Source: Escherichia phage vB_EcoM_JE01. Taken from it: a stretch of DNA of 64,000 nt. How positions within the stretch are numbered: the stretch's first letter is position 1; each line of letters opens with the position of its first letter. The notes beneath the pieces were generated by a model. The model was not told the origin of the DNA, searched no databases, and saw only the letters and a list, made by a program, of their open reading frames with translations. The stretch lies in the sequence record PQ471460.1. One strand, 5' to 3'. Position numbers and translations under genes: made by a program. This document shows, one piece after another, positions 9,656-60,888 of this stretch.

Positions 9656-10204
9656 ATGAAACAATACCAAGATTTAATTAAAGACATTTTTGAAAATGGC
9701 TATGAAACCGATGACCGAACAGGCACAGGAACAATTGCTTTGTTCGGTACTAAATTACGCTGGGATTTAACTAAAGGTTTTCCTGCGGTAACAACTAAGA
9801 AGCTCGCCTGGAAAGCTTGCATTGCTGAGCTAATATGGTTTTTATCGGGAAGCACAAATGTCAATGATTTACGATTAATTCAGCATGATTCATTAATTCA
9901 AGGCAAAACAGTCTGGGATGAAAATTACGAAAATCAAGCAAAAGATTTAGGATACCATAGCGGTGAACTTGGTCCAATTTATGGAAAACAGTGGCGTGAT
10001 TTTGGTGGTGTAGACCAAATTGTAGAAGTTATTGATCGTATTAAAAAACTACCAAATGATAGGCGTCAAATTGTTTCTGCGTGGAATCCAGCTGAACTTA
10101 AATATATGGCATTACCGCCTTGTCATATGTTCTATCAGTTTAATGTGCGTAATGGCTATTTGGATTTGCAGTGGTATCAAAGAAGTGTAGATGTTTTCTT
10201 GGGT
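9656..10204 (+). CDS. td: Thymidylate synthase, exon 1
   Basis: MKQYQDLIKDIFENGYETDDRTGTGTIALFG...QRSVDVFLG matches remembered T4 TS exon 1; the in-frame TAA at 10205..10207 is the first codon of the intron. Confidence 0.9.
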
Positions 10205-11220
10205 TAATTGAGGCCTGAGTATAAGGTGACTTATACTTGTAATCTATCTAAACGGGGAAACTCTCTAGTAGACAATCCCGTGCTAAATTGTAGGACCACC
10301 CTTTAATAAATACCTTTATATTTAAAGAGGTATTTATGAAAAGTGGAATTTATCAGATTAAAAATACTTTAAACAATAAAGTATATGTAGGAAGTGCTAA
10401 AGATTTTGAAAAGAGATGGAAGAGGCATTTTAAAGACTTAGAAAAAGGATGCCATTCTTCTATAAAACTTCAAAGGTCTTTTAACAAACACGGTAATGTG
10501 TTTGAATGCTCTATTTTGGAAGAAATTCCATATGAGAAAGATTTGATTATTGAACGAGAAAATTTTTGGATTAAAGAGCTTAATTCTAAAATTAATGGAT
10601 ATAATATTGCTGATGCAACGTTTGGTGATACATATTCTGTGCATCCATTAAAAGAAGAAATTATTAAGAAACGTTCTGAAACTGTTAAAGCTAAGATGCT
10701 TAAGCTTGGAACTGATGGTCGGAAAGCTCTTTACGGTAAACCCGGAAGTAAAAACGGACGATGGAATCCAGAAAAACACAAATTTTGTAAGTGCGGTGTT
10801 CGTATACAAACTTCTGCTTATACTTGTAGTAAATGCAGAAATCGTTCAGGTGAAAATAATTCATTCTTTAATCATAAGCATTCAGACATAACTAAATCTA
10901 AAATATCAGAAAAGATGAAAGGTAAAAAGCCTAGTAATATTAAAAAGATTTCATGTGATGGGGTTATTTTTGAATGTGCAGCTGACGCAGCTAGACATTT
11001 TGAAATTTCATCCGGATTAGTTACTTACCGTGTAAAATCTGATAAGTGGAATTGGTTCTACATAAATGCCTAACGACTATCCCTTTAGGGAGTAGGGTCA
11101 AGTGACTCGAAACGATAGACAACTTGCTTTAACAAGTTGGAGATATAGTCTGCTCTGTATGGTGACATGCAGCTGGATATAATTCCGGGATAAGATTAAC
11201 GACCTTATCTGAACATAATG
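10205..11220 (+). mobile_element. td group I self-splicing intron (1016 nt) carrying the I-TevI ORF
   Basis: Begins taattgaggcctgagtataaggtgac... and ends ...gaacataatg (terminal G) as remembered for the T4 td intron; length equals the T4 value. Confidence 0.85.
10336..11073 (+). CDS. I-TevI GIY-YIG homing endonuclease (intron-encoded)
   Basis: 245 aa; N-terminal GIY-YIG module KSGIYQIKN...KVYVGSAKD; Zn finger CKCGVRIQTSAYTCSKC; inside the td intron. Confidence 0.9.
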   Translation: MKSGIYQIKNTLNNKVYVGSAKDFEKRWKRHFKDLEKGCHSSIKLQRSFNKHGNVFECSILEEIPYEKDLIIERENFWIKELNSKINGYNIADATFGDTYSVHPLKEEIIKKRSETVKAKMLKLGTDGRKALYGKPGSKNGRWNPEKHKFCKCGVRIQTSAYTCSKCRNRSGENNSFFNHKHSDITKSKISEKMKGKKPSNIKKISCDGVIFECAADAARHFEISSGLVTYRVKSDKWNWFYINA

Positions 11221-11819: not shown

Positions 11820-12099
11820 ATATAAATCCGACTTTGATGTTAATATTCACCGTGGTACATTTTGGGGAAATTACGTCGGTAAAGATGCTGGCAGCCGGGA
11901 GGCTGCCATTGAATTATTCAAAAAAGATTTTATACGTCGAATTAAATCCGGAGAAATAACTAAAGCACATTTAGAGCCTTTACGTGGAATGAGGCTAGGA
12001 TGCACATGTAAACCAAAGCCGTGTCATGGTGATATAATAGCTCATATAGTTAACCGATTGTTTAAAGACGATTTTCAAGTTGAGGACTTATGCAATTAA
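11773..12099 (+). CDS. Small ORF between td and nrdA (nrdA.1-like), function unknown
   Basis: 108-aa ORF overlapping neighbours; CxC...CHGD motif. Confidence 0.55.
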
Positions 12100-14354
12100 T
12101 TAATGTTATCAAAAGTAGTGGTGTTTCTCAGAGCTTTGACCCGCAAAAAATTATTAAAGTTTTATCTTGGGCAGCTGAAGGAACATCTGTAGATCCTTAT
12201 GAATTATATGAAAATATTAAATCATATCTCCGTGATGGAATGACAACTGATGACATTCAGACTATTGTCATTAAGGCTGCTGCGAATTCTATTTCAGTTG
12301 AAGAGCCTGATTATCAATACGTAGCCGCTCGCTGTTTAATGTTTGCTCTTCGTAAGCATGTTTACGGACAATATGAACCACGTTCATTTATTGACCATAT
12401 TTCTTACTGTGTAAATGAAGGTAAATATGACCCTGAACTGCTGTCAAAATATTCAGCAGAAGAAATTACATTTTTAGAATCAAAAATTAAGCACGAGCGG
12501 GATATGGAATTTACTTATTCCGGGGCGATGCAATTAAAAGAAAAATATCTCGTTAAAGATAAAACCACTGGTCAAATTTATGAAACTCCGCAGTTTGCAT
12601 TTATGACTATTGGAATGGCATTGCATCAAGATGAACCCGTTGATAGACTAAAACACGTTATTCGTTTTTATGAAGCAGTATCTACTCGACAGATTTCACT
12701 GCCAACTCCTATTATGGCTGGTTGTCGTACTCCAACTCGGCAGTTTAGTTCATGCGTTGTTATTGAGGCAGGTGATTCGCTGAAGTCTATCAATAAGGCT
12801 TCCGCTTCAATTGTTGAGTATATTTCTAAACGAGCTGGAATTGGCATTAACGTTGGTATGATTCGTGCCGAAGGTTCTAAGATTGGCACAGGTGAAGTGC
12901 GTCATACTGGTGTTATTCCTTTTTGGAAACATTTTCAGACTGCTGTTAAATCATGCTCACAGGGTGGAATTCGTGGCGGCGCTGCTACTGCTTATTATCC
13001 TATTTGGCATTTGGAAGTTGAAAATCTTCTCGTTTTGAAAAATAACAAAGGCGTAGAAGAAAACCGTATTCGTCATATGGATTATGGCGTTCAACTGAAT
13101 GACCTAATGATGGAACGATTCGGAAAGAACGACTACATTACCTTGTTCAGTCCGCATGAAATGGGTGGCGAGCTTTATTATTCTTATTTTAAAGACCAAG
13201 ACCGTTTCCGTGAATTATATGAAGCCGCAGAAAAAGACCCTAATATTCGTAAAAAGCGTATTAAAGCCCGTGAACTGTTTGAATTGCTCATGACTGAACG
13301 ATCAGGAACAGCAAGGATTTATGTACAGTTCATTGATAATACGAATAACTATACTCCATTTATTCGTGAAAAGGCACCTATTCGTCAGAGTAACTTGTGT
13401 TGTGAAATTGCTATTCCAACAAATGATGTGAATAGTCCTGATGCTGAAATTGGATTGTGTACCCTTAGCGCATTCGTGTTGGATAACTTCGATTGGCAAG
13501 ACCAAGATAAAATTAATGAATTAGCAGAAGTTCAAGTTCGCGCTCTTGATAATCTTTTGGATTACCAAGGATATCCAGTTCCTGAAGCAGAAAAAGCTAA
13601 AAAGCGTCGAAATCTTGGTGTAGGTGTTACTAACTATGCAGCTTGGCTGGCAAGTAACTTTGCTTCTTATGAAGATGCTAACGATTTAACACATGAACTA
13701 TTTGAGAGATTACAGTATGGACTCATTAAAGCATCCATTAAGCTCGCCAAAGAAAAAGGACCTTGCGAATATTATTCAGACACTCGTTGGTCTCGAGGCG
13801 AATTACCTATCGACTGGTACAATAAAAAGATTGACCAAATCGCAGCTCCAAAATACGTTTGTGACTGGTCGTCGCTGCGGGAAGACCTTAAGCTCTTTGG
13901 CATCCGTAATAGCACATTATCAGCACTTATGCCATGTGAGTCATCTTCCCAAGTTTCTAACAGTACAAACGGTATCGAGCCTCCACGTGGACCAGTCTCT
14001 GTTAAAGAATCAAAAGAGGGTTCCTTTAATCAAGTCGTGCCCAATATTGAGCATAACATAGACCTCTATGATTATACGTGGAAATTAGCTAAGAAAGGCA
14101 ATAAACCTTATCTTACGCAGGTAGCTATTATGCTGAAATGGGTATGTCAATCAGCTTCAGCGAATACATATTATGACCCGCAGATTTTTCCAAAAGGAAA
14201 GGTTCCAATGTCTGTAATGATTGATGACCTTTTGTACTTTTGGTATTTTGGCGGAAAAAATTTCTATTATCATAATACCCGCGACGGTTCTGGTACTGAT
14301 GATTATGAAATAGAAACTCCAAAAGCTGAAGATTGTTCATCCTGTAAATTATGA
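12090..14354 (+). CDS. nrdA: Aerobic ribonucleotide reductase large subunit
   Basis: 754 aa; ATP-cone N-terminus and catalytic region (CEIAIP, C-terminal CSSCKL); matches T4 NrdA length. Confidence 0.95.
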   Translation: MQLINVIKSSGVSQSFDPQKIIKVLSWAAEGTSVDPYELYENIKSYLRDGMTTDDIQTIVIKAAANSISVEEPDYQYVAARCLMFALRKHVYGQYEPRSFIDHISYCVNEGKYDPELLSKYSAEEITFLESKIKHERDMEFTYSGAMQLKEKYLVKDKTTGQIYETPQFAFMTIGMALHQDEPVDRLKHVIRFYEAVSTRQISLPTPIMAGCRTPTRQFSSCVVIEAGDSLKSINKASASIVEYISKRAGIGINVGMIRAEGSKIGTGEVRHTGVIPFWKHFQTAVKSCSQGGIRGGAATAYYPIWHLEVENLLVLKNNKGVEENRIRHMDYGVQLNDLMMERFGKNDYITLFSPHEMGGELYYSYFKDQDRFRELYEAAEKDPNIRKKRIKARELFELLMTERSGTARIYVQFIDNTNNYTPFIREKAPIRQSNLCCEIAIPTNDVNSPDAEIGLCTLSAFVLDNFDWQDQDKINELAEVQVRALDNLLDYQGYPVPEAEKAKKRRNLGVGVTNYAAWLASNFASYEDANDLTHELFERLQYGLIKASIKLAKEKGPCEYYSDTRWSRGELPIDWYNKKIDQIAAPKYVCDWSSLREDLKLFGIRNSTLSALMPCESSSQVSNSTNGIEPPRGPVSVKESKEGSFNQVVPNIEHNIDLYDYTWKLAKKGNKPYLTQVAIMLKWVCQSASANTYYDPQIFPKGKVPMSVMIDDLLYFWYFGGKNFYYHNTRDGSGTDDYEIETPKAEDCSSCKL

Positions 14355-14405: not shown

Positions 14406-15584
14406 ATGAGCACAGTTTTTAATACAAACCCAGTTGATGTTTTAAAAGAACCTATGTTCTTCGGTTCAGGTCTTGGTATTGCGCGTTATGATATTCAACG
14501 TCATAAAGTTTTTGAAGATTTAACCGAAAAGCAGTTGTCATTTTTCTGGCGTCCTGAAGAAGTAAACTTAATGATGGATGCTGCACAATTTAACAAGCTT
14601 CCTCAATATCAGCAAGATATTTTTACTAATAATCTGAAGTATCAATCACTTCTAGATAGCATTCAGGGTCGTGCGCCATCTGCTGTACTTATGTCATTAA
14701 TTTCAGACCCAAGTCTTGATACATGGGTTGCTACATGGACTTTTAGTGAAACTATTCACAGTCGTTCATATACTCATATCATGCGAAATCTTTATACTGA
14801 TCCATCGAAGGTATTTGATGAGATTGTACTAGATGAAGCTATCATGAAACGTGCTGAATCTATCGGTCGCTATTATGATGATGTTCTGACTAAAACCCGT
14901 GAATGGGAAAATGCTAAAGAATTTACAGAACTAGCTAAAGAATCTCCTGATGCTGTTTTTCGTTTAAATCGAGCTATTAAACAAGAAGCCGAAGCTAAAC
15001 GAGCACTAATGAAATCTCTTTACCTCTGTTTGCACGTTATTAATGCCTTAGAAGCTATTCGTTTTTATGTATCTTTTGCATGTACCTTTAACTTCCATAA
15101 GAACATGGAAATCATGGAAGGTAATGCCAAGATTATGAAGTTCATTGCACGTGATGAGCAGCTTCACCTTAAAGGCACACAATATATTATTCGTCAACTT
15201 CAATCCGGTACTGATGGCGATGAATGGGTTAAAATTGCTCAAGAGTGTGAACAAGAAGCAGTTGATATTTTCATGGAAGTTAACCGCCAAGAAAAAGATT
15301 GGGCAGTTCATTTATTTAAAGATGGCGATGTTCCTGGATTAAATACAAATAGCATGTGGAGCTTTATTGATTACTTAACTGTATCTCGTATGAAACAGTG
15401 CGGTCTTCCATGCCCAATTACCGATGCTCCGGTTAAACATCCATATCCTTGGATTCGTGAATATCTTAATTCTGATAATGTTCAATCCGCGCCACAAGAA
15501 GTAGAACTGTCATCTTACCTTGTTGCACAGATTGATAATGATGTTGATGATAAAGTTATGATGAGTTTTAAAAAATACTTTTAA
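14406..15584 (+). CDS. nrdB: Aerobic ribonucleotide reductase small subunit (continuous, no intron)
   Basis: 392-aa uninterrupted ORF with di-iron/tyrosyl-radical R2 features. Confidence 0.9.
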   Translation: MSTVFNTNPVDVLKEPMFFGSGLGIARYDIQRHKVFEDLTEKQLSFFWRPEEVNLMMDAAQFNKLPQYQQDIFTNNLKYQSLLDSIQGRAPSAVLMSLISDPSLDTWVATWTFSETIHSRSYTHIMRNLYTDPSKVFDEIVLDEAIMKRAESIGRYYDDVLTKTREWENAKEFTELAKESPDAVFRLNRAIKQEAEAKRALMKSLYLCLHVINALEAIRFYVSFACTFNFHKNMEIMEGNAKIMKFIARDEQLHLKGTQYIIRQLQSGTDGDEWVKIAQECEQEAVDIFMEVNRQEKDWAVHLFKDGDVPGLNTNSMWSFIDYLTVSRMKQCGLPCPITDAPVKHPYPWIREYLNSDNVQSAPQEVELSSYLVAQIDNDVDDKVMMSFKKYF

Positions 15585-43312: not shown

Positions 43313-43930
43313 TTATGCCTTACTAAATTTGCCTTTAGAGTCTCTTTTCATGAGACGACCTTTAATAAATCCGTCGGGAATAATACCGTCTGGTTGTATT
43401 AATTTATTTATTGCTCCATTATTGACCCAAAAAGTTCCTGTGGTAGTCGGTTTGACTTTACATCCTTTTCTGGACTTTCTATTAAGATGAACCATCCCTT
43501 TTACAAATCCTTCTGGAACAAGTTCTCCAGGTTTAATAAAAATATTTTTAGTTCCATTGGTGTAACAAGTTGTACCTAATACCGTGCCCGGTGAGTTTTC
43601 AAATCTCTTAGCGGAAGATTCTTTCATCTTTGCTATAACCTCTGCAGTCATAACAATTCCACCAATTCCACCAGGTTTCATATTATAATAATTTTTGCTT
43701 TTTATTAGTTCAGGAGTTATAATTTCTTCTTCATACATGTACGCTTCTTCGGAAGTTTTAAACTCTTTTAGTATTGTTCTAGAGAAATTCTTTTCACCAT
43801 ATTTCTTTATAGCCTGCTGAATTGCTTTACCGGAACCAAGGTAGCCATCATTCAAGTCATCAGTAGAGTGTTTTCCTATATACTTTTTACCATTTATTAG
43901 ATTTGTCGTTTCATATACAAAGTGGTACAT
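43313..43930 (-). CDS. segE: SegE-like GIY-YIG homing endonuclease
   Basis: 205 aa; N-terminal GIY-YIG module YHFVYETTN...KKYIGKH; located between uvsW and hoc. Confidence 0.8.
   Translation of the reverse strand: MYHFVYETTNLINGKKYIGKHSTDDLNDGYLGSGKAIQQAIKKYGEKNFSRTILKEFKTSEEAYMYEEEIITPELIKSKNYYNMKPGGIGGIVMTAEVIAKMKESSAKRFENSPGTVLGTTCYTNGTKNIFIKPGELVPEGFVKGMVHLNRKSRKGCKVKPTTTGTFWVNNGAINKLIQPDGIIPDGFIKGRLMKRDSKGKFSKA

Positions 43931-52837: not shown

Positions 52838-52838
<1 letters not shown>
52596..52838 (-). CDS. 67: gp67 prohead core protein (highly acidic)
   Basis: 80 aa ending in an Asp/Glu-rich tail. Confidence 0.8.
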
Positions 52839-54463
<1,625 letters not shown>

Positions 54464-54495: not shown

Positions 54496-54987
54496 TTATT
54501 CCCAATAATCGAGAGCGAGAGTTACTTCAAAGGTTTGGATTTCATTGTTTGAATCCCAATCTAACTGAAGTTCACCCACGTTAGTAGGCCACAGGCCTTT
54601 AATTTCGACTTCTTTTGTTACAGTTTTAGCGTCACGAGCATATTGGCGTACAATAGCACTCTTTTTATACTCTGCTGGTTTTCCACCAGTAATTTCGTTT
54701 CCTTGTCCAGCAGCGATGCTTTGCCAGTCAACAAACTTCTGGCGTGCATCATGCGCCTCATCATTCATTACTGTAATAGTCCAGTCATCGAATGTACGAT
54801 CGCCTGCTACGTTAATTTTACGGTTCATAAATCCGACTGGAATTTTTTCTACAATACCAGCTGGTAAAGCAGTGGCTTTACATTGAAACGTAAAATTTTG
54901 TCCAAGATAAGAAATTTCTACTTGGAATAAGTTAGGTCGAGCAAAATCACCAGATTCAAACGCTCGTGTTACATCATCTACAAACAT
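54496..54987 (-). CDS. 19: gp19 tail tube protein
   Basis: 163-aa ORF. Confidence 0.9.
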   Translation of the reverse strand: MFVDDVTRAFESGDFARPNLFQVEISYLGQNFTFQCKATALPAGIVEKIPVGFMNRKINVAGDRTFDDWTITVMNDEAHDARQKFVDWQSIAAGQGNEITGGKPAEYKKSAIVRQYARDAKTVTKEVEIKGLWPTNVGELQLDWDSNNEIQTFEVTLALDYWE

Positions 54988-55060
54988 ATTAGCCTCTGTA
55001 GTATTTATATCCCTATGTTTAACCTAGGGCATATAGAATTAAAGAATTAAGGATATAGTG

Positions 55061-55068
55061 TATTTATA
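55061..55068 (-). promoter_or_regulatory. Late promoter (TATAAATA) for gene 19, next to a GAAA-loop hairpin
   Basis: Plus-strand tatttata 55061..55068; hairpin ggcctgccgaaacaggcc 55071..55088. Confidence 0.6.
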
Positions 55069-55094
55069 TGGCCTGCCGAAACAGGCCTTTAGAA

Positions 55095-55652
55095 TCATTC
55101 TAGTAAATCCCAAAGATCTACGCTATTTCTTTTTGACTTTTCTCGGTTAGATTCCCAAGTGATTATTTCTAAATTTTTTACGCTTGCTATAATTTCCGGC
55201 GGAATTAAATTATCAAATCCATATTTGATAGATACTTTATGATCGAGTTGGTAAGCACCTTCTACACCGCACACTCCTATTTTATCAGCATTCGGCCATT
55301 TTGACCAAATTTTTCTTATTTTAGCTGACTTAGTTATAGAATGAACTCTACTAGCATATAATGCAAACTCTTTTCTTTTACCAGTCCATCGAGGATGTTT
55401 ATCGCCTCTTTGCCATGGTCTGCTTATTCCGGATTGAACTTCCGAATTTTTAATAGCAACTTGTTTAATGCTGCATTTTCTACACGCATGTGTGGGTGTT
55501 CTATTTAAAAGCTGAATGCTTCTACTAAATTTAATACCGCATAAATCACATTTAGCGTCAACTATTTTATTACTATTCTTTGGCATTAATTCTATTGGAA
55601 CAGATACTGTATCATGATATGATACTTCATATCCTAGAATTGCCGACCACAT
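55095..55652 (-). CDS. HNH-family endonuclease, putative free-standing homing endonuclease (start uncertain)
   Basis: HNH core AYQLDHKVSIKYGFDNL...ITWESNREKSKRN; Zn-finger-like CDLCGIKF...CRKC; first ATG 55652 (track start 55739 is TTG and overlaps the gp18 terminator hairpin). Confidence 0.65.
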   Translation of the reverse strand: MWSAILGYEVSYHDTVSVPIELMPKNSNKIVDAKCDLCGIKFSRSIQLLNRTPTHACRKCSIKQVAIKNSEVQSGISRPWQRGDKHPRWTGKRKEFALYASRVHSITKSAKIRKIWSKWPNADKIGVCGVEGAYQLDHKVSIKYGFDNLIPPEIIASVKNLEIITWESNREKSKRNSVDLWDLLE

Positions 55653-55717
55653 TTTTGAATGATTTCTTGGTTTTATTGTAACAAACTTAGAAATAATCAC
55701 TTGTTTCCTCGAGAATA

Positions 55718-55731
55718 GGGGCCGAAGCCCC
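55718..55731 (-). terminator. UUCG-tetraloop hairpin immediately after gene 18
   Basis: Minus-strand GGGGCTTCGGCCCC; weak U-tract, so may be an RNA-stability element rather than a terminator. Confidence 0.45.
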
Positions 55732-55739
55732 ACAATCAA

Positions 55740-57719
55740 TTAACCTGCAAGACCAGTTAACTCATCGAAATCTGCACCAGTAGCAGTTGCGACGAAATTA
55801 AGTTGGATATAATTTATACTACGAGCCGGTTGGATGTAGAATGTTGCAACAAACTCATTTCTATCAATTACTGACGGAGTGTTATTTGTTGTATCGCAAA
55901 CTACACGATATTCATAAATTCCACCGAGAGCTTTAATTCCCTGTAAGTATTGGGCAGTTTCTGTGCGGAATGATGAACGAGTAAACGCGTTGTTTAATTC
56001 GAACAAACGATATTTTGAACTACGTCCGATATTCGTTTTCAACATATTAAACAGACGACGAACATTAATACGATCAAATGGAGAAGGAACAGAAGTAGCT
56101 GTTTTATCACCATACAATACGTAACCATCACCACCTGTACCGGTTACCGGGTTGATAGCTTCTTGGTATAAACGGTCGCGCTGCGCCTGGCGAGTTTCAA
56201 TAGCAAGTTTAATAACGTTAAGAATCTGGCCACGATTATAACCAGCTGGAGACATCCAAGTCTGAGAAACGTTATCGGTTCTTGCACATAAACCAGCAAT
56301 ATCAGCTGCTAATGGAACCCAACGATTCACATCATTATATTTGTCATACTGATATTTGTAGTTACCATCAATTGCTGCGTAGGTTGAACTGATATTAAAG
56401 TTATTATCAGTGTATGAACCCGTTGCAGTTCTCCAATTGACTAAGTTATCGACAGCACGAGTTACAGGAATTCCAACTACAGTTTCACGCGGTGGTGAGC
56501 ACAATACTAAGCAATCTTGGCGAGCATCCCCAATTGAAACGACGTGTTTTTGGACAGTAGATGCTGTTTCTAAAGATTCACCGGCACAAGAACCCGCAAT
56601 AAACAACTGAACGTCAACAGATTCACGGTCAGCAAAGAAGTCCCAGGCTTCCATCAAATCTCCTGCTGTTACTTCAGCATTTGATGATAATCCACCAGAC
56701 AGAGTTAAAATTCCAGAGAAGCCTTCTGGCCAGTTTTGTGCAGTTGCAAAAATATATTCTGAACCACCTTTTGCGAAAAAGTCATCAATATAGATGTTGC
56801 TATCGTAAATATCTTTTTCACCATGCTTTGTTGAAAGAACAACGCTTTGAACAATAGCATCATTACGACGAACTATAATAGCGTATTGTGAATCAGTTTG
56901 TGGTCCATATCCAAATACTGCTTTGGCAGTAGATGCGCGTGTTCCGCCACCTGGATAAATTGGGAGTAATGCAGAAGCTCCTTTTGCGTAGTCAGCTTTA
57001 GATACAATTTCGATTTCAATTTTATCGCCTAACTCGCCTGGATAAAGAGCTACTACTCCTGGAATTCCATATTTTTCGAGATTTGCTTGAAATTCAACCG
57101 CTGTCACAGCAGCTTCAGCATTTTCAATTTCAGCTAATAAAATACCGGAATCAGTAATAATTTTTCCAAGAGTTATTACTGCAGCTAAACCAGAGGAAGA
57201 CGAAGAAATTTCCGCGGTCCAGTTAGAACCTAATGCTGGATATTCACCGACTTCTTTCGCTTTAGCGATAATTTTTGCGGTAGGAATATTAATTTTCTTA
57301 ATTTTTCCATCAGCATCTACTTCGGTAATTTTACCCTCTGTTTCAACATTTTCTGAAACATACTTAACCGTGATTTTATCTCCAACCGCGTAGTTACTAC
57401 CTGGGGCTGAAATAGTGTATTCAATATTACCAGCAATCGGAGATGAGTTTTTAGCGGTATCTCTATCGACAGCACGCACAACTCGCAAATCATTTCCATA
57501 TTGTAAGAAATTCATTGCAGACATAAAATAATCAGCAGTTTCAGCTGTAGGTTGACCAAAAGTATTAACTAAATCTACTTCATTTGTAACCTGTTTAATC
57601 TGAAAAGCAGGACCCCACTGGAATTTACCGGCCAAAGCTGCTGTACCAGTAGAGTTATTAACAACGGTGCTTTGAACCGTAGTTTCTTTGAGCTCAATGC
57701 CCGGAGATAATAAAGTCAT
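55740..57719 (-). CDS. 18: gp18 contractile tail sheath protein
   Basis: 659-aa ORF. Confidence 0.95.
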   Translation of the reverse strand: MTLLSPGIELKETTVQSTVVNNSTGTAALAGKFQWGPAFQIKQVTNEVDLVNTFGQPTAETADYFMSAMNFLQYGNDLRVVRAVDRDTAKNSSPIAGNIEYTISAPGSNYAVGDKITVKYVSENVETEGKITEVDADGKIKKINIPTAKIIAKAKEVGEYPALGSNWTAEISSSSSGLAAVITLGKIITDSGILLAEIENAEAAVTAVEFQANLEKYGIPGVVALYPGELGDKIEIEIVSKADYAKGASALLPIYPGGGTRASTAKAVFGYGPQTDSQYAIIVRRNDAIVQSVVLSTKHGEKDIYDSNIYIDDFFAKGGSEYIFATAQNWPEGFSGILTLSGGLSSNAEVTAGDLMEAWDFFADRESVDVQLFIAGSCAGESLETASTVQKHVVSIGDARQDCLVLCSPPRETVVGIPVTRAVDNLVNWRTATGSYTDNNFNISSTYAAIDGNYKYQYDKYNDVNRWVPLAADIAGLCARTDNVSQTWMSPAGYNRGQILNVIKLAIETRQAQRDRLYQEAINPVTGTGGDGYVLYGDKTATSVPSPFDRINVRRLFNMLKTNIGRSSKYRLFELNNAFTRSSFRTETAQYLQGIKALGGIYEYRVVCDTTNNTPSVIDRNEFVATFYIQPARSINYIQLNFVATATGADFDELTGLAG

Positions 57720-57747: not shown

Positions 57748-60888
<3,141 letters not shown>

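Follow-up and report, generated by a model that had tools for sequence, protein, structure and literature searches.

ORF19.1, a putative HNH-like homing endonuclease gene between the tail sheath and tail tube genes of T4-like phages

In phage T4, the tail sheath gene 18 and the tail tube gene 19 are adjacent, separated by a spacer of 116 nucleotides (nt) devoid of open reading frames (ORFs). In contrast, Escherichia phage vB_EcoM_JE01 (record PQ471460.1) harbours a gene at this junction, which raises the questions of what this gene encodes and how it came to lie there. We analysed a stretch of 64,000 nt of this phage, hereafter called the window, which is a Tequatrovirus (T4-like) segment; the region of interest is 99.3% identical to that of Escherichia phage vB_EcoM_SYGD1. 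A preliminary description, made from the letters of the window alone, had rightly placed an ORF of 185 to 214 codons between genes 18 and 19 and had proposed that it encodes a free-standing HNH homing endonuclease. The same gene was deposited as early as 1994 as 'ORF19.1' of phage T6, the name used here. The earlier-deposited records are 97.5–98% identical to the window copy, with the same position and GTG start and no structural difference.

Our analyses indicate that ORF19.1 is probably a free-standing HNH-like homing endonuclease gene, whose nuclease activity, target site and homing we infer by comparison. The case for homing is based on the sporadic, class-incongruent distribution of the gene at a single locus, on a substitution hot spot in the neighbouring gene 18 and on the presence of relatives in classic homing-endonuclease contexts.

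An optional insertion at a single locus

To determine the boundaries of the insertion, the window, T6, RB5 and ADUt were aligned to T4, and 12 ORF-less Tequatroviruses were checked as well. The 9 nt TACGGTGCA that directly follow the gene 18 stop codon in empty genomes give way to 645 nt in the window. Of the 12 ORF-less phages, 11 have the sequence TAA-TACGGTGCA-TTCTAAAGGCCTGTTTCGGCAGGCC-ATATAAATA at the empty site, and the twelfth, JEP6, differs by one substitution (TACGATGCA). At the other end, the first base common to insert-bearing and empty genomes is the A of the ORF19.1 TGA. The insert is made up of a 39-nt leader containing a hairpin, a Shine-Dalgarno sequence and ORF19.1 itself (Table 1).

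As the preliminary description had held, the insertion leaves the flanking regulation intact, with the native hairpin and the gene 19 late promoters unaltered. The positions that it gave for a terminator-like hairpin of gene 18 and for the gene 19 late promoter were accurate, but the hairpin does not belong to gene 18: it came with the insert and is missing from T4. Since it is not followed by a T-run, it is no canonical terminator. The native stem-loop likewise has no T-run, and analogous hairpins are found between gene 18 and the ORF19.1 homologue in phages phiM12 and AS-zj. The start codon, which had been considered ambiguous for want of an ATG with a good Shine-Dalgarno sequence, is a GTG preceded by a good one, GAGGA, giving 201 residues; the ATG at 55652 would yield a product of 185 residues.

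We next determined the distribution of the insert among ~500 Tequatrovirus-level phage records, defined as those matching the T4 18-19 junction at at least 95%. Approximately 116 of them (~23%) have it. T4 itself and ~77% of the records lack the ORF, which is therefore not a fixed gene of T4 and its relatives, an eventuality that the preliminary description had named as fatal to its proposal. The alleles fall into two types in this genus, with ~70 records of class I (the window and T6 type) and ~47 of class II (the RB3 and RB5 type). The two have their leader and their last ~250 nt in common, and their N-terminal halves are unrelated.

A tblastn search with the ORF19.1 protein retrieved 242 phage records, 232 of them covered over at least 80% in a single piece. 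There is one place per record, with the single exception of Enterobacter phage KMB20 (OL828291), which has two. Among the matches listed, none represents a second locus in any Tequatrovirus; hence there is no detectable paralogy to the mob genes. None of those listed lies between nrdA and nrdB of T-even phages either, a result that bears on Hef, the 'homing endonuclease-like function' of phage U5. Two records carry a Tequatrovirus 18-ORF19.1-19 region at 91–97% identity under unexpected names, OR584013 ('Pseudomonas phage PsgM02F') and MG010123 ('Staphylococcus phage SAJK-IND', 32 kb); their host labels seem doubtful, a hint of contamination or mislabelling.

Outside the genus, we inspected the contexts of 19 homologues in phages and contigs. 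They include Karamvirus KMB17, Dhakavirus UP19 and IME540, Gaprivervirus RZ, Gelderlandvirus S16, Winklervirus CHI14, Klebsiella phage Roth21, Acinetobacter phage Tonic, Shewanella phage Thanatos-2, Aeromonas phage AS-zj, Sinorhizobium phage phiM12, the IMG/VR genome L023 and two environmental contigs. In all 19, the homologue directly follows gene 18, and it also precedes gene 19 in all except phiM12. Scans of IMG/VR and of metagenomes for the junction gave 5 contigs each, and a gp19 scan gave 15 loci.

The proteins form three N-terminal classes that cut across taxonomy. T6, the window, KMB17, UP19 and RZ have class I proteins, and RB5, sb3, S16, Roth21 and Tonic have class II proteins. Class III, found in CHI14, IME540 and one IMG genome, is characterized by an ATG start, a changed second Cys pair and an insertion. 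What follows gene 18 can differ even between phages that are 94–96% identical over its last 600 nt. Thus, the Gapriver group comprises class I (RZ), class III (IMG..5394) and empty genomes (IMG..5408 and ..5401); the S16 group has class II (S16) or nothing (IMG..6257), and among Dhakaviruses UP19 has class I and IME540 class III. Class I and class II proteins of Tequatrovirus are 87% identical in the C-terminal domain as opposed to 29% in the N-terminal domain, and these alleles are therefore chimeric. The class II N-terminus of Tequatrovirus is closest to those of Klebsiella and Salmonella phage alleles (58–62%). Judging from this incongruence between the phylogeny of the gene and that of its flanks, ORF19.1 is exchanged between phages and not merely inherited vertically. 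All 19 extracted copies are intact, and the ratio of non-synonymous to synonymous substitution rates (dN/dS) is 0.06–0.13 among close alleles and 0.08–0.30 within classes across genera, which argues that the gene is functional and not decaying.

The end of gene 18 bears a possible trace of this exchange. We compared haplotypes of 23 Tequatrovirus sequences, ignoring their phylogeny. The 3'-terminal 700 nt of gene 18 contain 100 variable sites, of which 17 sit in one 50-nt segment located 50–100 nt before the stop codon, and the sites most associated with the presence of the ORF fall in that same segment. All six class I carriers have one common haplotype (...CGTAGTATAAATTATATCCAACTTAATTTCGTC...), and T4-type genomes depart from it at 13 of ~36 positions, with a Thr-to-Gln codon among the changes. 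In three other genera, every near-identical pair that differs in the presence or class of the ORF has its differences crowded in the last 120 nt of gene 18. For ten such pairs, 8–30 of 17–38 differences are found there, where 3–8 were expected (binomial P from 1e-2 to 2e-15), compared with P = 0.02 and 0.59 for the two empty-versus-empty control pairs. Classes I and II leave gene 19 unaffected; class III, which abuts this gene, alters the first ~40 nt of it. We consider the last 120 nt of gene 18 as a candidate target or co-conversion tract. The asymmetric tract is what one would expect if the end of gene 18 were cleaved and co-conversion followed, and also if the tract were no more than a recombination junction.

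The protein and its nuclease-type domain

The features that had led to the initial HNH proposal, namely the strings YQLDHKVSIKYGF and ITWESNREK and the two CxxC pairs, CDLC (C51/C54) and CRKC (C73/C76), are all present. The protein is predicted to consist of an N-terminal, presumably DNA-binding module with a zinc-finger element and a C-terminal nuclease-type domain. In an alignment of 43 homologues that are 30–68% identical, C54, Y115, G145, Q151, D153, H154, S157, G161, N176, L177, W182, N185, R186 and K188 are invariant, and C51, C73 and C76 are kept at at least 90%. Sub-threshold matches to the DUF4379 treble clef were found in 15 of the 43. HNH nucleases have a general-base His closing strand 1, often behind an Asp, then a structural Asn and, about 9 residues further on, an Asn or His of the helix that binds metal. 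The HNH hallmark residues D153-H154, N176 and N185, with a spacing of 9 between the two Asn residues, are thus present in all 43 homologues, and their equivalents in 66 more distant relatives; the catalytic residues whose absence would have spoken against the initial proposal are therefore there.

AlphaFold2, run with the homologue alignment, gave a model with a predicted local distance difference test score (pLDDT) of 91.3 and a predicted template modelling score (pTM) of 0.53, the latter suggesting two domains with a loose mutual orientation. The predicted C-terminal domain comprises a strand (150–154), two short helices, a second strand (177–181) and a helix (182–188). Its best structural matches are HNH nucleases, including the small nicking enzymes Gme, GVE2 and T5 SciA, with weak scores, and a Foldseek search of the model against the PDB gave no match at E <= 0.001. 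Against viral models, Foldseek retrieved direct homologues and then mostly unnamed proteins; several matches carry the name 'HNH endonuclease', 'homing endonuclease' or 'endonuclease-like', and one, a 'multiheme cytochrome', is unrelated.

Sequence profiles were searched as well. In Pfam, the window protein matches no HNH family above threshold and has just sub-threshold matches to DUF4379, Prim-Pol and C2H2. One of the 43 homologues matches HNH_4 (E = 0.078), and no Pfam HNH family figures in the top list for the 66 distant relatives. In PHROGs, ORF19.1 matches PHROG 5104 of unknown function (E = 9e-82), and no named nuclease family was found there. PDB profile matches obtained with the full alignment and with the C-terminal domain (zinc fingers, mS66 and leucine-rich repeats via the P.EIG.L.NL motif) were rejected as chance. 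We also aligned the domain with the HNH segment of SpCas9, verified as 100% identical to PDB 6o56_A, using hhalign. The alignment is not significant (probability of 1.2%) and includes an 8-residue insertion; its register puts D153-H154 on Cas9 D839-H840, N176 on N854 and N185 on N863. The C-terminal domain of ORF19.1 is thus HNH-like by its motif and predicted fold, and not by curated sequence membership. The initial assignment is supported by the D-H...N...N residues and, with weak structural scores, by the predicted fold; no Pfam HNH model matches above threshold.

A search of 1.84 billion proteins with a profile built from the C-terminal 74 residues detected 4062 cluster representatives (E <= 0.001). 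In these, the domain is nearly always C-terminal, in proteins of 100–560 residues, and D-H, G, N and N stay invariant in 66 family members. Its N-terminal partners are DUF7487, resolvase-type and other helix-turn-helix domains, NUMOD3 and zinc ribbons; by analogy, such a build of DNA-binding modules joined to a nuclease is typical of homing endonucleases. One metagenomic protein of 268 residues (P0047) has two tandem copies of the nuclease domain after a single zinc-finger module.

Two relatives are found in contexts characteristic of mobile endonucleases. In Campylobacter phage CP21 (L057:1-4485), a 388-residue protein with the domain is encoded inside a split gp18 gene broken at approximately T4 residue 516. 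There, gp18 is annotated in four pieces and its homology to the T4 protein is interrupted between residues ~515 and 517 around the 388-residue ORF, after which come three genes annotated as 'putative homing endonuclease'. In Klebsiella jumbo phage KP13-7 (L058:1703-4218), a 323-residue ORF with the domain lies between the two halves of nrdA. The first part of this nrdA closes, and the second opens, with intein-like sequence (...GIVSHN|TSSQ), and from this junction the gene seems to be interrupted by a split intein.

Table 1. Positions of ORF19.1, its predicted modules and the neighbouring genes and signals in the window
Feature	Position	Strand	Remarks
ORF19.1, longest frame	55095-55739	minus	214 codons from TTG
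ORF19.1, coding sequence	55095..55700	minus	GTG start, 201 residues, TGA stop at 55095-55097
Shine-Dalgarno sequence GAGGA	55706..55710	minus	5 nt ahead of the GTG, read from the sequence
Inserted segment	55095..55739	minus	645 nt in place of 9 nt TACGGTGCA; absent from T4-type genomes
Leader hairpin GGGGCTTCGGCCCC (GGGGC-UUCG-GCCCC)	55718..55731	minus	within the insert; absent from T4
Native stem-loop GGCCTGTTTCGGCAGGCC	55070..55087	minus	common to T4; directly 3' of the ORF19.1 stop; z = -2.3
Zinc-finger element, C51-x2-C54 ... C73-x2-C76	55473..55550	minus	in N-terminal presumed DNA-binding module, residues 1 to ~125
C-terminal nuclease-type domain	55098..55406	minus	residues ~99-201
Predicted beta-beta-alpha core	55137-55253	minus	residues 150-188; D153-H154 at 55239-55244, plus N176, N185
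Last 120 nt of gene 18	55740..55859	minus	substitution hot spot tied to ORF state and class
Densest part of the hot spot	55788-55828	minus	encodes PARSINYI[Q/T/V]LNFV
TATAAATT, 7/8 match to the T4 late-promoter motif	55811..55818	minus	in gene 18 hot spot, ~110 nt upstream of the GTG
Gene 18 late promoter TATAAATA	57748-57755	minus	sole perfect late-promoter motif upstream of ORF19.1
Two perfect late-promoter motifs TATAAATA	55061-55068 and 55002-55009	minus	serve gene 19, unaltered by the insertion
Gene 17	57751-59583	minus	
Gene 18 (tail sheath)	55740..57719	minus	
Gene 19 (tail tube)	54496..54987	minus	
Gene 20	52838-54424	minus	

Expression, proposed mechanism and rival explanations

A motif scan found no perfect late-promoter motif directly ahead of ORF19.1, and sigma-70 and terminator scans gave nothing relevant around it. 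As the sole perfect late promoter upstream is that of gene 18, ORF19.1 appears to be a promoter-less cassette that depends on read-through, and its transcripts probably come from that promoter. The imperfect motif TATAAATT in the hot spot arises from the carrier-haplotype codons AGT-ATA-AAT-TAT, where T4 has AGC-ATT-AAC-TAC. One may speculate that it is ORF19.1's own promoter, brought along with the cassette; the haplotype is also found in some ORF-less phages. Seven free-standing endonuclease genes of T4 have been described as promoter-less and transcribed by read-through, and among such T-even genes a GUG start was predicted for mobA and a hairpin just upstream of an unsequestered ribosome-binding site was reported for seg43(25) (PMC2988022). 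By the same scheme, ORF19.1 is probably expressed late and weakly, with gene 18 late transcripts passing through the leader hairpin and translation starting from the GTG.

We propose the following mechanism. The N-terminal zinc-finger module of ~125 residues would recognize DNA and the C-terminal beta-beta-alpha-metal domain would cut it, with H154 as the general base, D153 and N185 holding the metal and N176 bracing the fold. In a cell infected at once by a carrier and by an ORF-less relative or one of another class, the relative's genome would be cut or nicked by the enzyme within the conserved 3' end of gene 18 or close to it. The candidate target stretch encodes ...KPARSINYITLNFVAT... and is located 50–100 nt from the insertion point; on T4-type DNA, the expected site of action is the part coding for PARSINYITLNFV or its vicinity. 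Repair by recombination with the ORF-bearing genome would then bring in ORF19.1 and, through co-conversion, the final ~100 nt of gene 18; in the carrier, synonymous and T-to-Q/V changes within its own target stretch would give protection.

Several observations weigh against such a homing endonuclease. No Pfam, NCBIfam or PDB sequence profile identifies the domain as HNH, and we found no cleavage or mixed-infection data for ORF19.1 in the searchable literature. The ORF-less phages JEP6 and GiZh have carrier-type haplotypes, and the class II carrier sb3 has the T4 haplotype; the hot spot, described from 23 Tequatroviruses with their kinship ignored, could mark recombination junctions alone. Moreover, universal intactness, strong purifying selection and strict locus fidelity would also be expected of a useful, non-selfish accessory gene. 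Such a gene might encode a nuclease that degrades or excludes competing phage or host DNA, or that nicks DNA for a late function. Its presence at this locus would be ancient and its loss frequent, and ordinary homologous recombination via the conserved ends of genes 18 and 19 would shuffle it between phages. The constancy of the locus from enterobacterial phages to Sinorhizobium phage phiM12, the intact copies with dN/dS of 0.06–0.30, the small nicking HNH enzymes among the best structural matches and a hot spot that could be a mere recombination junction all agree with this explanation. Nevertheless, we consider it unlikely, since the gene is dispensable in ~77% of Tequatroviruses and three DNA-binding classes swap at one site within genera, which suits a changing target specificity better than housekeeping. 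In addition, the divergence for classes I and II is asymmetric, in gene 18 and not in gene 19, and the same domain is present in a split gp18 gene and in a split-intein nrdA, hallmarks of homing. A packaging-associated role of the HK97 gp74 type was rejected because ORF19.1 is optional and T4-type terminases are not known to require an HNH partner.

Two other explanations seem far less probable still. The cassette might be moved by modular shuffling of the PeSL type, through stem-loops and promoters, with its protein taking no part in the spread. Indeed, GC-rich stem-loops bracket the insert next to late promoters, and such motifs have been proposed to mediate exchanges between T4-type genomes (PMC2839356, PMC4122927). 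However, the two stem-loops have no common sequence beyond TTCGG, the exchanged tract starts inside gene 18 and not at the hairpin, and the conserved nuclease residues would be left unexplained; PeSLs are besides composites of an early promoter and a terminator that belong to hyperplastic regions and are 'usually not' located in structural ones (PMC4122927). It is equally improbable that the C-terminal domain is not of the HNH type, the protein having another homing-endonuclease fold (Vsr-like/EDxHD) or being a non-catalytic zinc-finger regulator that binds nucleic acids. That possibility draws on the missing Pfam HNH match, on the weak structural scores and on the KP13-7 relative in a split-intein nrdA, an arrangement for which Vsr-like endonucleases were described (PMC2677866). 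The predicted core of ~40 residues, with two strands and a helix, D-H...N...N and the canonical Asn-to-Asn spacing of 9, argues otherwise, as does the register of the non-significant hhalign alignment with Cas9. Since the core has no EDxHD motif on a four-stranded restriction-enzyme fold, both fold and motif led us to reject Vsr-like/EDxHD membership. A free-standing HNH-like homing endonuclease thus remains our preferred interpretation of ORF19.1. The optional insertion posited by the preliminary description is observed in the genomes, and the homing that it also posited is proposed from comparisons.

Comparison with known elements and implications

We propose, by analogy, that ORF19.1 works like the Mob, Seg and Hef free-standing endonucleases of T4. 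Like MobA-E, it is free-standing in a spacer between conserved genes, optional among close relatives and carried as a promoter-less cassette on a host transcript; mobA also has a predicted GUG start (PMC2988022). Both combine an HNH-type catalytic motif with a zinc finger. However, Mob proteins carry HNH_3 at the N-terminus and a zinc finger at the C-terminus (PMC10448857), and the order is reversed in ORF19.1, with its N-terminal zinc finger and C-terminal nuclease domain. As ORF19.1 also has no match to Pfam HNH_3, it does not belong to the Mob family. With the intronless homing of SegF, SegG and MobE it has in common a candidate target in an adjoining conserved essential gene, a co-varying flanking substitution tract and marker-exclusion-like patches (PMC2988022). 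Its putative tract lies ~50–120 nt from the insertion, which is closer than the 'hundreds or thousands' of bp given for the characterized free-standing enzymes. Seg proteins are GIY-YIG enzymes, and ORF19.1 differs from them in its catalytic family and in that its homing is deduced from sequence.

Compared with Cas9-type and small phage HNH domains (HNH_4; Gme 4h9d, GVE2 5h0o and I-HmuI), that of ORF19.1 has an 8-residue helical insertion between the strands. Its 'YQLDH...NL...W.xNRxK' signature is outside all Pfam models, and the domain is joined to a treble-clef-like zinc finger. The KP13-7 relative resembles the fractured genes of Dassa et al. 2009 (PMC2677866) in that it lies between split-intein nrdA halves. 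In contrast, the families described there are GIY-YIG and Vsr-like, the ORF19.1 domain is HNH-like, and the window copy breaks no gene.

Database records give little guidance as to function. Deposited entries read 'ORF19.1', 'hypothetical protein' or 'unknown function', and homologues bear GenBank labels such as 'holin' (SYGD1), 'putative head morphogenesis protein' (T6 AP018814/NC_054907 and SF2-1) and 'type II restriction endonuclease' (Klebsiella Roth phages), none of which has any support; a few recent ones read 'HNH endonuclease' or 'homing endonuclease'. The gene is unannotated in RB5, RB10 and Aplg8, and in S16 a fragment of 106 residues is annotated although the frame of 206 residues is intact. 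A review of T4 mobile elements omits the 18/19 site (PMC2988022). Petrov et al. counted one 'other HNH' gene in T6 (PMC2993671), which may be ORF19.1.

Other putative endonuclease genes were met along the way. KMB17 (L006:3748-4329) and IME540 (L013:3267-3848) have an optional 193-residue ORF between genes 19 and 20, with a GIY-YIG-like N-terminus (YCTYLT...YIGST) and GRKRP repeats resembling NUMOD3. By their sequences, the 18-19-20 tail and portal cluster gathers endonuclease-like genes of more than one family. Elsewhere in the window, the frame of td (thymidylate synthase) stops after Pfam positions 1–175 of 266 (9656-10207, plus strand) and is followed by a 245-residue ORF (10336-11073, plus strand) with GIY-YIG, I-TevI zinc-finger and I-TevI DNA-binding domains. 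This interrupted td with its I-TevI-domain ORF (9656-11073) indicates that the phage carries the td group I intron with an I-TevI-type endonuclease. A 205-residue ORF (43313-43930, minus strand) matches the SegE-type GIY-YIG domain (PF19835) and represents another free-standing homing-endonuclease-like gene. On the plus strand, a 754-residue ORF (12090-14354) and an uninterrupted 392-residue ORF (14406-15584) lie 51 nt apart; we take them to be nrdA and nrdB from their size and gene order. T4 has mobE and an nrdB intron with I-TevIII at this place, and the window phage seemingly lacks both if our assignment of these ORFs holds.

The main points of interest of ORF19.1 are its family-wide fidelity to the tail sheath gene, its three swappable DNA-binding classes and its unmodelled nuclease domain. 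A broader proposal, which we make tentatively, is that of a distinct, unmodelled family of HNH-like homing endonucleases (YQLDH-x21-NL-x4-W-x2-NRxK; >4000 clusters at 50% identity), whose nuclease domain would always be joined to exchangeable DNA-binding modules. Its zinc-finger branch would be locked onto the tail sheath gene across the T4 superfamily, and the three N-terminal classes, set against the variation (T/Q/V codon and synonymous changes) over the final ~100 nt of gene 18, might reflect a running arms race between target and immunity.

ORF19.1 alters no general principle. If it is indeed a homing endonuclease gene, the T-even homing-endonuclease repertoire, described so far mostly for nucleotide-metabolism and replication genes, would gain another catalytic-domain family and, with the tail sheath, a target in a structural gene. 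The strong local divergence in the terminal part of gene 18, which could confuse phylogenies based on this gene, would be explained, and ~240 phage records labelled 'hypothetical protein' or wrongly named would receive a sensible name. Finally, three DNA-binding classes with one nuclease at one locus would represent a compact natural system for specificity change in homing endonucleases.

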